From: Pseudovirgaria hyperparasitica
Taxonomy: Eukaryota
Length of the DNA stretch: 64,000 nucleotides
Strand: one strand, 5' to 3'
NCBI GenBank assembly: GCA_010093815.1
Contig: ML996565.1
The position numbers and the translations under genes were made by a program. Shown here in pieces: positions 77 through 57,759 of the stretch (its first letter is position 1; every line of letters starts with the position of its first letter). The notes under the pieces are model-generated. The model was not told where the DNA came from and did no database searches. It saw only the letters and a program-made list of their open reading frames with translations.

Positions 77-361
77 TCAACCACAGATCCCCTCTCCCAG
101 ATCACAGAACTTCGAACAGCAGGCTCCATTGATACGACACAACGCTTAACTCAATGAGTTAAACTCCACGAAATGTTCATCGTCTTACTCACATCCACTT
201 TCGAGACATCTTCGCTCAAGTGTCTATCCACTTGTTAGCGCCTACAATAGACCTTAGAACTTGCCTATTACAGCAGGAAGTGCTTTTTCCATGTTAGGAA
301 GTGCTGCACATATCGGAGTGAGCATTAAGGCGGTCAATGCTATCGCTGATGAGAGTTTCAT
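77..361 (-). CDS. Small secreted cysteine-rich knottin (ICK-type) prepropeptide, 62 aa, 3 exons (361-272, 223-193, 144-77)
   Basis: Manual splice gives MKLSSAIALTALMLTPICAALPNMEKALPA|TLERRCLESG|SLCRINGACCSKFCDLGEGICG*: a signal peptide, a dibasic RR site and C-x6-C-x5-CC-x3-C-x6-C. Two 48-nt introns: 271-224 (GTAATA..GCTAAC..TAG) and 192-145 (GTGAGT..AAG). Confidence 0.8.
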
Positions 362-24155: not shown

Positions 24156-24576
24156 CGCGATAGTGATTTAACCGCGGCAGGAGGGTAATGGGGTGGGCGT
24201 CTCCACAATCCCCTCTATGGAAGAGCAAGAGCAAGGTGGAAGGATACCTTATCTTCTAAAGTATTAGTGGCCGATGTTGCTTGACCTATGGTCTGACGTG
24301 CATGTGTCCCCAAACCTGAGACGTGAATTTGTCTCAGGCCACAACACCATAGAAAGCTGACCGGCAGCTGAAGCTGCGTCAGGCAGACATCAGATCTTCA
24401 AGGTCGCATCTCGGAACCTGAGATGTTGTTTTGTTAAGTAGCGCCGAGCCTTATGACGGACAATTGATAGCTGACGCGGATACACCGAGTCTGATAACGA
24501 GGGGCATATTCCGCAACACGTTATGCCGTCGAGAAACCTCTCAGATATGTAGAGTCTGGCTCGAAATCCACTCATT

Positions 24577-24663
24577 GGTCGCTTAGCTCAGTTGGTTAGA
24601 GCGTGGTGCTAATAAGCCTTCCCTGATACGCCAAGGTCGCGAGTTCGACCCTCGTAGTGACCA
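24577..24663 (+). tRNA. tRNA-Ile(AAT) with a canonical 13-nt intron at position 37/38 (24615-24627)
   Basis: Acceptor GGTCGCT/AGTGACC-A, D arm GCTC..GAGC, anticodon stem TGGTG/CGCCA with AAT at 24611-24613, and a GTTCGA T-loop. Confidence 0.95.
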
Positions 24664-25055
24664 TTATATTTTCGGCGCTCATGCGCAGTCCTCTCTTTTT
24701 GGGCGTGGAATGGCATCATTTTGTTCATATTCCTTCCCGTAGGAGATTATAAGGGTTGGGATAGATGTCATTGCGTATGCAAGGTCTCGACGGCAATCTG
24801 GGCCACGCACGCTAGTCGGGATCGGATTGGAGCTTTCCCCGCGGTCTGGTCTGCGCGTCTAACAGCTCAGCACATCACCATGGCAACCTACGCCATCACT
24901 CCCAGACCCTGGAAATCTGGGCAGCAATTTGAGAATGTGCGCCTTGCAACAACGGACTTCTGCTATCATCATTGCTTCTCTCATGTTATCAATTTTATCC
25001 TACTTATATTCACCTCACCATCCCTCGCGAAGGGCTCCTAAGCACCGCTGTCGGC

Positions 25056-54680: not shown

Positions 54681-54877
54681 GTTTCATGACCTTCACGCGA
54701 ACCGATACAAATTCAATACCAAGTCCCACGATGCAGGATGCTTAGTCAAGTCCATAAATTGTTAAACGCTAGCTCGAAATAACGATGGTGGCTGAAAACA
54801 ATGGCTACGATTAATTGCAATGACTGAAAATTAGCAGTTTCAAGTTACTTTTGATGCGAAAGTGATATTATTCGTCT

Positions 54878-54878
<1 letters not shown>

Positions 54879-54920
<42 letters not shown>
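54879..54920. repeat. (GAT)14 microsatellite
   Basis: Perfect trinucleotide run. Confidence 0.95.
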
Positions 54921-54921
<1 letters not shown>

Positions 54922-55050
54922 ATTCTTACAGGTAGTAATAAGAGAACTGACAGATTGATTGCATGTCAAATTTTGCAGGTAGGGGATGAAGCTGCACTAA
55001 AGCCGAAAATGGCTTAGCCCATTTACTTTGACTTCTCAATCTTACAAAAA

Positions 55051-55057
55051 TATAAAG
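55051..55057 (+). promoter_or_regulatory. TATA element upstream of the split tRNA-Val
   Basis: TATAAAG lies 33 nt upstream of the predicted mature tRNA 5' end. Confidence 0.45.
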
Positions 55058-55083
55058 TAAAATGAAACCCTCTGTCTCCACCG

Positions 55084-55212
55084 GGTTGAATGGTGTAGGT
55101 AAGAAATCGTCACAGATCATGCGTCTCCCGTGCAGCCACTAATATGAATGTAGTTGGTTATCACGTCAGTCTAACACACTGAAGGTCTCCGGTTCAAGTC
55201 CGGGTTCAATCA
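55084..55212 (+). tRNA. tRNA-Val(AAC) split in the D-loop by a 55-nt spliceosomal-type intron (exon 1 55084-55098, intron 55099-55153, exon 2 55154-55212)
   Basis: Spliced sequence: GGTTGAA TG GTGT AG|TTGGTTA TCAC G TCAGT CTAACAC ACTGA AGGTC TCCGG TTCAAGT CCGGG TTCAATC A. The 7-bp acceptor, anticodon and T stems all pair, G18G19 and the B box are intact, and AAC is at 55173-55175. Confidence 0.9.
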
Positions 55213-55217
55213 TTTTT
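55213..55217 (+). terminator. Pol III T5 terminator
   Basis: TTTTT immediately after the discriminator A73. Confidence 0.8.
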
Positions 55218-55259
55218 AAGTTTTGCTGCCTCGAACGAATGTTCTGCCATTCCTTGCGC

Positions 55260-55745
55260 CAGCTAGAGTGCTTAGCCTCGTCACCTTACACCCGCCTGTT
55301 CAAGAATTTGTTTGGAGTATCATCTAAAAAGCTAAGAAGGATGCTGATACGGATTCGACTACTCCAGTGGCACCTATCGCAGATTCGGACCAGATCAGTT
55401 CATAGTGTGATGTTCTTCTGCTTGGCATCACCGCACGTAAACCTACTCCAGCCTTGCTTAGAAGTGTTCTTGACGACATCAATGGAAACTCAAAAGACGC
55501 TGCGATAGGTGAACGCTGACGAGTCCCTCGGTTTAGTACTATTAGGGGCATTCTTGGCGATTACAATGCTTCTACGATCCCGCTTACGCTGCAGATTGAC
55601 ACTGGGCAGATCAACAGGCAATTCCAACTAGACGACTGGTATACGTCAATTGGATTCGAAATGTCAGAGTTTAATGATACCACCAAGAAGCTTACGCGTG
55701 TACTGTTCCTTGGTCTCATGGCGACCGAACTTTCTCTCTCGCAAG
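55260..55745 (+). pseudogene. Possible degraded coding fragment
   Basis: One frame reads protein-like for about 160 codons with three in-frame stops (TAA, TAG, TGA). Family not recognised. Confidence 0.25.
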
Positions 55746-55838
55746 TGGAGTGTGCTATAAAAGTACTTGATGCTCGTCGACAGTGATTCTTTTCTTTCTC
55801 CAAAACGATATCTATTGTCCTTAGAAAAGTCTCTCAAT

Positions 55839-57478
55839 ATGCTTCTGTCACCCATTCACAACCTCATCGCAGCTCTATCCACAATCCCATTCTCACACGC
55901 GTCTTTAACAGGTCTCACACCTGTCTGTCTTATCCCACTTTTCCACTACGGGCATCTAATACTTAGCAGTGCGACGCCCTCATCTCAGCAGGCCTCAGTG
56001 ACCGCATCCTCACCCCCCTCTCTCCGTCGTACTCCACTCAACTCCTCACCTGGTATAACACAGCGACCCGCCGCCACCCATGGTGCATCGTACTTCCGCA
56101 CACATCATTAGAGGTATCCCTCGTGCTCACCACCCTCAGTGCAGTCGGTTCTGGCGCTGGCGACTGGGCCATTGCGGTCAAAAGTGGTGGCCACGGCAAC
56201 GACGCATCGAACAATGTCGACAGCGGCGTGACGATCGATCTACAGTATCTCGATTCGGTGGATTACTACGAACACAATGGGTCAGCATCGATCGGGCCGG
56301 GCGCCAGGTGGGGCGATGTGTACAAGAGACTCGGCGAACAGGGGGGCGCAGTGACAGGAGGACGAGACGCGAATGTTGGAGTGGGTGGATTTCTACTGGG
56401 TGGTGGGATGTCGTATTATACCGGGCGTACGGGCTTTGGCTGCGACAACGTGATCAACTTTGAAGTCGTACTGGCTAGTGGCGACATCATTAACGCGAAC
56501 GCAACCTCCAACGACGACCTATGGCGCGCGCTGAAGGGCGGAAGCAGTAACTTCGGCGTCGTGACGAGATTTGACCTAGAGGCGTTTCCGGCGCGCAATC
56601 TGACGTACGGCCAGAAGACGATGAGTACGGAGTATGAGGAGGAATTCGTTCAGGCGGTGTTTGAGTTTGTAGAACGAAGCGAGGAGCACGTGAATGATGC
56701 TCTTGTGCCGTACTATTCGTATGATGCAGCAAGTGAAGAGATAGTGATGAGAGCGATCACCGTTAACACGAAGGCGGAACCGAATACGAGGGCATTTGAT
56801 AAGGTGGATATTATTCCGGCAATTGAACCTGGATTGAGGACGGAGATGAGTCTCGCAGAAGCAGCTGGTGGGACCCTAGAAGGTGTTGTGAGGTGAGTCT
56901 TTGAGCCGCATCAATCCATTCCAGATGAATGAACATTGACTCTTGACAGGGGCATTTCATTCACGCTCACTTTCAAAAATGACCTCAGCATCTTACGCCG
57001 AGCCACCGAGTTACACCACGAATACGTCATTCAAATGAGCGAGCTCATTGGTGCGTCCAACTTTACCACCCTCAATTTCTTCCAGCCTCTGCCATCATAT
57101 TTTGGGGCGATCGAACACCGCAAAGTTGGTAATATGCTTGGTCTCGACCACGTAAACCAGAACAATATCCTATGGGTCCTCGGAATCGGTGTGCTAGGTG
57201 GCGAAGACCAGCAGGCGATCGCACATGCGAAAGGTGCGAATATCACCGCGATGGTTCATGATTTTGCGGAGTCCGTTGGAGGCGGGAACGATCTTATCTA
57301 TCTGAACTATGCAGATGCAAGTCAAGATCCGATTGGCAGCTATGGACTTGAGAACATCCAATTAATTCGGGATGCTGCTGCTAAGTATGATCCTGCAGGT
57401 TTCTTTCAGCAACGTATCCCTGGTGGGTTCAAGATCTCTAGAGTGAGTTCGTGCGCTGGGACGCCATGTAATCATTGA
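55839..57478 (+). CDS. Secreted FAD-linked oxidoreductase (BBE/6-HDNO-like, VAO superfamily)
   Basis: Signal-like exon 1, then PWCIVLP, AVKSGGH (flavinylation His), GGR..VGVGG..LGGG, DLWRALKGG..NFGVVTRF, YLNYAD and KYDP.GFFQ..PGGFK. Introns at about 55923-55969 and 56893-56949. Confidence 0.9.
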
Positions 57479-57759
57479 TAGAGATCGATGGACCGTAAAG
57501 AACTCGACAGTATTGGCAGGTTAAATACGTATCCTTCAAACAAGAAATCGTAATATTAAGATAGACAACAAAATATCCATTGTTCACATGATGTGTTCGA
57601 AACTGCTCCCAGAGCAAATACTGGCTCAGTAGTAAGCGAAGCAAGGGATAAAGGTTATCCCTTACACGACTGTTCTCGCGAAGGGACAGCGCTGTAGAAC
57701 GAAGCTCGGTTCGATCAGTCATGGCCGCTTTTTATGCACGCGGTGCACCCGGACCTCTC

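Follow-up and report, generated by a model that had tools for sequence, protein, structure and literature searches.

Introduction

Canonical introns of nuclear tRNA genes are located at position 37/38 and are removed by the SEN/TSEN endonuclease together with a ligase. Spliceosomal introns and tRNA introns are treated as unrelated classes in the available part of a paper from 2025, with the spliceosomal class assigned to mRNAs and other Pol II transcripts (PMC12530127). Spliceosomal introns in structural RNA genes have been reviewed for U6, U2, U5 and U1 snRNA and for rRNA; tRNA is not among the hosts in the sections of that review available to us, where the determinants of intron insertion into such genes are called unclear (PMC5855946). 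Introners shorter than 200 nt have been described in fungi and algae (PMC11146597, in part), and the accessible portions of two papers describe target-site duplications or repair scars at gained introns and introners (PMC11146597; PMC11782384). No description of a spliceosomal intron in a nuclear tRNA gene was found in the literature searched, which was largely that outside subscription journals, in agreement with the statement of the first-pass annotation of this DNA that it knew of no such case.

Here we describe a tRNA-Val(AAC) gene interrupted by an insert between D-loop positions 15 and 16, identified in a window of 64 kb (the whole stretch of DNA analysed). Our preferred reading, to which we assign a probability of roughly 0.5, is that of a young spliceosomal-type intron gained in this lineage by one redundant copy of tRNA-Val(AAC).

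Organization of the interrupted tRNA-Val gene

Exon 1 of the gene (55084-55098, + strand, as are all features of the locus) has 15 nt and comprises the acceptor 5′ strand, positions 8-9, the D-stem 5′ strand, A14 and G15. It is followed by the 55-nt spliceosomal-type insert (55099-55153) and by exon 2 (55154-55212), whose 59 nt include the remaining D arm, the anticodon arm with the anticodon AAC at 55173-55175, the variable loop, the T arm, the acceptor 3′ strand and A73. The insert begins with the 5′ splice site GTAAGA (55099-55104), preceded by exonic AG (AG/GTAAGA, 55097-55104), carries the branch sequence ACTAAT (55138-55143), with A55142 as branch A, and finishes with the 3′ splice site TAG (55151-55153), which ends 11 nt past A55142 and contains the first AG after it. 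Both the insert and exon 1 have TGTAG as their last 5 nt.

Immediately 3′ of the tRNA there is a T5 run resembling a Pol III terminator (55213-55217), and a TATA-like sequence, ATATAAAG (55050-55057), is located 27-34 nt 5′ of tRNA position 1. Regarding the internal Pol III elements, a B-box-like sequence, GGTTCAAGTCC, is found in the T arm of exon 2 (55191-55201), and the A-box region is divided by the insert, whose end carries a partial near-copy of the 3′ part of that region at normal distance from the B box. The insert is devoid of the dinucleotide TT and hence of any T4 run.

Excision in silico of 55099-55153 resulted in an ARAGORN call of tRNA-Val(aac), 74 nt long, with all four arms and with 7 of 7 acceptor-stem pairs (6 Watson-Crick and 1 G-U) in the predicted cloverleaf. 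The features expected of a functional tRNA, that is, a complete cloverleaf with anticodon and conserved positions, appear solely after removal of the insert: ARAGORN gives no tRNA call on the unspliced locus, and the Rfam tRNA model gives on the intact locus a partial match (55147-55204, model positions 9-63 of 71) with 29.4 bits, the gathering score being 29. The first-pass annotation had described the arrangement of 15 nt, 55-nt insert and 59 nt followed by T5, the GTAAGA, ACTAAT and TAG signals with their 11-nt spacing, the lack of a T4 run and a complete 74-nt cloverleaf on excision, for which it had suggested running a tRNA finder on the spliced sequence; all of this agrees with the sequence and with the ARAGORN result. 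Its prediction that such genes would be missed by tRNA finders is borne out by the silence of ARAGORN and the half match of Rfam.

Intron signals of the insert and alternative intron classes

The frequency of comparable signals was determined over the window. A splice-signal test that demands GTRNG at the beginning, YAG as the last three letters and a CTRAY whose A lies 8-25 nt before the end was passed by 2 of the 127,890 55-mers of both strands, this insert counted; GT..AG alone is present in 471 of them. In a second control, each GT..AG segment of 35-150 nt was excised over the whole window and the product was scanned again for tRNAs. Among 56,023 removals, 3 produced a junction-spanning call, and each of these concerns the tRNA-Val locus: removal of 55099-55153 and removal of 55095-55153, which starts 4 nt earlier, both gave Val(aac), and removal of 55150-55184 gave 'His(atg)', an implausible call of 94 nt. 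The resemblance of the insert to an intron far exceeds what chance would give.

The 55-nt insert also matches the mRNA introns of the window in size and signals, as the first-pass annotation had noted. The two nearby introns confirmed by RNA have 47 and 57 nt, both GT..AG, and the intron candidates whose removal restores an open reading frame measure 46-61 nt and have CTAAC, CTGAC or CTAAT 9-15 nt from YAG. The 5′ splice sites of the probable introns of the window belong to the same class as that of the insert (GTRNGN). Among the features of U2-type introns, the insert shows GTRNGN after the exon, CTRAY before the first YAG and a typical length. Its signals, size and exact boundaries support a spliceosomal type at the level of sequence, and intron size and signals, together with the relatives of the tRNA, would make the tRNA gene fungal-type. 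A group I or group II intron was rejected, since 55 nt is too short for these ribozymes of hundreds of nt and no Rfam family of either kind was found in 54900-55400 at E values up to 10.

We also considered a non-canonical tRNA intron, one whose bulge-helix-bulge (BHB) motif would be cut by the tRNA splicing endonuclease. A formal register for this motif can be drawn, with bulges at 55097-55099 and 55152-55154 and a 4-pair central helix made of 1 Watson-Crick and 3 G-U pairs, but its score of 8/10 was matched by 3,970 of 20,000 random position pairs (19.9%). Forcing the central helix yields −14.3 kcal/mol against −30.4 kcal/mol for the unconstrained fold, a cost of about 16 kcal/mol, and the free fold, whose energy is ordinary (z −0.41), has no such motif. 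Furthermore, in the tRNA-Ile of the same window a short intron occupies its usual place in the anticodon loop. The random-pair score, the forced-helix cost, the free fold and the position at 15/16 instead of 37/38 led us to reject an endonuclease intron as extremely improbable. The tRNA-Ile gene, tRNA-Ile(AAT) at 24576-24664 (+), contains a 13-nt anticodon-loop intron of endonuclease type and reaches 50.8 bits with the Rfam tRNA model.

Presence of the insert in genomic DNA and additional tRNA-Val copies

Exon 1 lies within DNA sequence of run X1 (record 2), in which a Logan contig covers 54932-55178 with 0 differences and a depth of 375.6, the flanking X1 contigs having depths of 307.7 and 320.3. 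An organism lacking the insert, with an assembly or read artefact in its place, is barely credible in the light of these data. It would be in line with such an artefact that a single run of a single sample, perhaps the source of the window itself, provides the DNA support for the insert. On the contrary, the insert is carried without differences by a separately built contig of single-copy depth, and no joined insert-free form with the flanks of this locus was found among the X1 contigs listed. The X1 contig with the insert thus rules out an assembler artefact, and it does not represent an independent isolate.

Further copies of the tRNA were evident in the same run. The stretch 55149-55187 has a depth of 1094.4 in X1, and two other X1 contigs contain the 3′ part of a tRNA-Val and are then unlike the window: one of 6724 nt (depth 314.5), with 7 differences, and one of 4668 nt (depth 297.7), with 2. 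In addition, a 33-nt X1 contig shows TGTAG after 3 letters that differ from the insert, at a depth of 750, compared with about 310 for single-copy flanks. Taking depth as a rough guide to copy number, two uninterrupted paralogs would accompany the interrupted copy, and the genome would have about three closely similar tRNA-Val(AAC) copies, this locus included. A count of uninterrupted Val copies had been proposed by the first-pass annotation; this DNA run has two other tRNA-Val loci, which are probably uninterrupted. Because of these redundant copies, nothing requires the interrupted one.

One of these further copies (X1 record 8 / X4 record 14, aligned to 55176-55216), whose first difference from the interrupted gene falls at 55206, so that position 67 and its partner position 6 are diagnostic, is contained in a 1195-nt RNA contig with a depth of 2951.9, which runs past the terminator of that copy into its flank. 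The embedding of tRNA-Val in long RNA is therefore not unique to the interrupted locus.

RNA contigs covering the locus and its surroundings

The GT..AG joints 55922/55970 and 56890/56948 identify X3 and X4 as RNA runs from this organism. The RNA evidence consists of the assembled contigs of these runs, which drop rare variants. Record 10 of X3 (798 nt, depth 14.5) starts with 3 unmatched letters and continues with 55149-55922, joined to 55970-55989. The stretch thus covered by RNA (55149-55989, +) runs from tRNA exon 2 through T5 into a FAD-oxidoreductase gene, and the contig includes exon 2, the locus-specific acceptor 3′ strand, T5, the flank and part of the FAD-oxidoreductase gene. In X4, record 13 spans 55176-56890 and 56948-57500. 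Both runs show transcription of exon 2 together with its flank.

X3 record 10 departs from the genome at 55148/55149, which is the point where the spliced and unspliced forms diverge; spliced or intronless contigs align from 55149 because the insert and exon 1 both end in TGTAG. This divergence point is suggestive of the splicing of a long Pol II-type RNA. Equally, the 3 letters could stem from k-mers of intronless paralog tRNAs, and the RNA of this contig may start inside exon 2; a contig over two genes need not correspond to one transcript. Of the contigs listed for X3 and X4, none lies on 54865-55148, and so none has the insert or exon 1, in assemblies that drop rare forms. With regard to removal in RNA, the remaining U2-type feature, no joint 55098/55154 was found among the RNA contigs listed, and none of the X3 and X4 contigs was seen to connect the locus-specific acceptor bases of exon 1 to exon 2. 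The neighbouring intron 55923-55969 is spliced in X3 record 10 and present unspliced in X3 record 11 and X4 record 13, which indicates that retained introns are not systematically lost from the contigs of these runs.

The downstream gene (55770-57478, +) has a frame of 534 aa after removal of introns 55923-55969 and 56893-56949, and its product matches Pfam PF01565 (FAD_binding_4) with an E value of 1.2e-16. The leader of this gene (55149-55770, +) is at least 620 nt long and contains 8 upstream ATGs. Given that its first intron, 55923-55969, is retained in some contigs, much of the RNA of the FAD gene may be unproductive. On the other side of the tRNA locus there is a chlorophyllase-like alpha/beta hydrolase gene, according to Pfam. 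A (GAT)n microsatellite is located between the hydrolase gene and the tRNA (54865-54931); the contigs of all runs break there, and as a repeat it was left out of the contig alignment.

Conservation and origin of the insert

The first-pass annotation had suggested a scan for tRNA halves separated by intron-like inserts. Such a scan was carried out on metagenomes for insert lengths of 0-30 and 40-70 nt. Identical exon ends 40-70 nt apart were found at 0 loci, against at least 119 metagenome loci in the control scan with ends 0-30 nt apart. Among the matches listed (121 in 119 loci), 120 had a gap of 0 and 1 had an 8-nt tandem duplication. The two contigs of another species are uninterrupted, as are the Val copies of X5, the run aligned among X5-X24, which together amount to 0.07 of the sampled words. 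Judging from these sequences, the interrupted form is rare and probably confined to this lineage.

The exons themselves are well preserved. From position 8 to position 65 the spliced tRNA has the same sequence as 13 of the 119 Val loci among the matches listed, and in the comparison with the metagenome sequences listed the acceptor differs from its relatives by paired changes that keep the stem. Undamaged exons of this kind fit either a recent gain or selection.

Other features of these Val loci were recorded in the course of the comparison. Several metagenome Val(AAC) genes with an intact D-loop (e.g. with acceptor start GGCTCGT) contain introns of the ordinary kind behind position 37, which shows that this tRNA family has canonical introns in other organisms. 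Metagenome locus L046 contains at 300-331 (+) a sequence resembling tRNA-Val in which 8 nt at the start of the D-stem/loop are duplicated in tandem and the 5′ strand of the acceptor does not pair; this is a probable pseudogene, next to an intact copy at 121-144. The idea that a TATA 5′ of the gene generally marks these tRNA genes was rejected as weak, TATAAA or TATATA being present at −45 to −18 in 14 of the 118 uninterrupted metagenome Val loci listed vs 7 of 118 in a control stretch.

Regarding the origin of the insert, an imperfect direct repeat was identified at its boundaries. The 9 nt that end the insert (TGAATGTAG, 55145-55153) are matched within the 12 nt that end exon 1 (TGAATGGTGTAG, 55087-55098) at 9 letters, with a 3-nt gap. 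The local score of this repeat, 6.5 for exon 1 against the last 14 nt of the insert, is reached by 2.8% of random 14-mers ending in YAG, and the highest score among 15 other probable introns is 5.0. The repeat hints weakly at a target-site duplication or at a repair scar. No second copy of the insert was found within the 64-kb window, where the best other match has 11 nt (E 0.55). Tandem duplication of exon 1 together with its 5′ flank was rejected as the source of the insert, since its similarity to 55030-55098 stays within chance, 0.33-0.82 of shuffles or random 55-mers scoring at least as well.

A direct repeat at the insert ends (p about 0.03) would also be in keeping with an inert insertion pseudogene, that is, with intron-like DNA, either an introner-like element or repair filler, lodged in a spare copy whose 5′ part is silent, unspliced and decaying. 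The same can be said of the lack of an RNA contig for exon 1 and the insert, of the missing conservation of the insert and of the existence of further tRNA-Val loci. Moreover, mobile introns bring their own signals, as described in the available part of one source, so that a perfect intron needs no selection (PMC11146597). However, a silent locus is at odds with the transcription of exon 2 and its flank in two RNA runs, and the X3 contig goes 3 letters further yet not into the insert. No second copy of the insert was found in the 64 kb, and any RNA across the locus would be expected to splice with such signals. We consider an inert pseudogene improbable.

Expression of the interrupted gene and the question of a working tRNA

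According to the preferred reading of a young intron in a redundant copy, transcription would start slightly 5′ of exon 1, where the TATA-like ATATAAAG could seat initiation by either Pol II or Pol III; initiation a few bases ahead of exon 1 would fit the contig that begins at tRNA position 8. U1 would pair with AG/GUAAGA and U2 with ACUAAU, with A55142 as the branch point, and the first AG past the branch (55152-55153) would serve as acceptor. Ligation of G15 to U16 would restore the D-loop, the cloverleaf being possible only after splicing. The transcript would be a long Pol II-type RNA spanning the tRNA, T5 and the FAD-oxidoreductase gene, with the insert as its first intron, and RNase P and RNase Z could cut the tRNA out of the spliced RNA. 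We consider it likely that the insert is spliced in vivo, and rather doubtful that a working tRNA is produced from this copy, whose tRNA output would probably be minor or nil.

According to the rules of Pol III promoters, the split A box, together with the partial copy by exon 2, could lead Pol III to initiate within the insert. A start at that place may give a 5′-truncated RNA, which counts against a Pol III route.

A stronger claim is that of a working tRNA-Val(AAC) gene that depends on the spliceosome, whose precursor, made by Pol III or Pol II, would undergo splicing, end trimming by RNase P and RNase Z, CCA addition and charging. Several features of the locus are in agreement with it: the cloverleaf is perfect on removal of the insert, with 7 acceptor pairs; the tRNA has the same body as widespread Val tRNAs (13 of 119 loci among the matches listed), and the acceptor differences from its relatives are paired, with the stem retained. 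T5 follows directly, the TATA-like element is placed at −27 to −34, and the insert has no T run. The absence of the insert from the RNA contigs, one of which diverges at the predicted junction, points in the same direction, and a precedent is offered by the spliceosomal introns of Pol III-made U6 and other ncRNA genes, as covered in the accessible part of a review (PMC5855946). On the other hand, intact exons are expected for a very young insertion too, the A-box region is split, and a mature product was not seen, in libraries that would hardly reveal one. The interrupted form is also unconserved (0 vs at least 119 metagenome loci), and the genome has further tRNA-Val loci; these two observations argue likewise against a selected, essential role of the interrupted copy. 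Altogether, we regard a working gene as unlikely. Of the proposal in the first-pass annotation that this tRNA may be matured by the spliceosome, the spliceosomal-type signals stand, with a BHB discarded, and the maturation of a tRNA is no more than possible, its RNA support being indirect.

Were the unlikely case of a working gene true, it would be the first nuclear tRNA needing pre-mRNA splicing to mature, with a lariat removed and charged tRNA-Val released, and, the two being part of one RNA, tRNA output could be linked to the FAD-oxidoreductase transcript. A tRNA foldable only after mRNA-type splicing would cross the line between two intron systems, and sets of enzymes, that are treated separately, and its gene would join the short list of structural RNA genes with spliceosomal introns (snRNA, rRNA). 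Even if neutral and young, the insert would represent a clean, dated intron gain in a non-coding gene, in which exact excision can be read from the cloverleaf. The locus also shows that tRNA finders silently lose such genes. Removal of GT..AG segments followed by a new scan could count them across fungal genomes.

Comparison with known systems

The interrupted tRNA-Val shares with canonical nuclear tRNA introns that a tRNA gene is interrupted and that removal is needed for function; unlike them, the insert lies at 15/16 in the D-loop, has 55 nt, carries GT-AG ends plus a branch site, and offers no usable BHB. Disruptions outside the anticodon loop, including the D-loop, are found in Cyanidioschyzon merolae, nucleomorphs and Archaea, in tRNA genes that are permuted or have ectopic or multiple BHB introns and which standard finders also miss. 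Those genes, in the part of the source available, need a BHB and the endonuclease, whereas at this locus the BHB fails and the spliceosomal signals are complete (PMC3978253). With introner-like elements, as far as they are described in the accessible portion of the source, the insert has in common its shortness, its non-coding nature, its own splice signals, an imperfect flanking repeat and a recent look (PMC11146597). It differs from them in that no further copy is present in the 64-kb window and in that the repeat is marginal (p about 0.03).

The closest systems are the spliceosomal introns of other structural RNA genes. As in U6 of Schizosaccharomyces pombe, in U6, U2, U1 and U5 of Rhodotorula hasegawae and in some ascomycete rRNA genes, a GT-AG intron with a branch site is found inside a structural RNA gene, according to the sections of the review at hand (PMC5855946). 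The same sections present the snRNA and rRNA introns as sporadic, lineage-specific gains in which the RNA is usable only after removal, U6 being a Pol III gene (PMC5855946), and the tRNA-Val insert resembles them in these respects. Unlike those cases, the host here is a tRNA, with an intron system of its own, the copy is redundant, and its splicing is probable and its function possible; the explanation offered for snRNAs in that part of the review, reverse splicing favoured by nearness to the catalytic centre, is inapplicable to a tRNA (PMC5855946). The tRNA is thus a new host class for a known phenomenon, the presence of spliceosomal introns in structural RNA genes.
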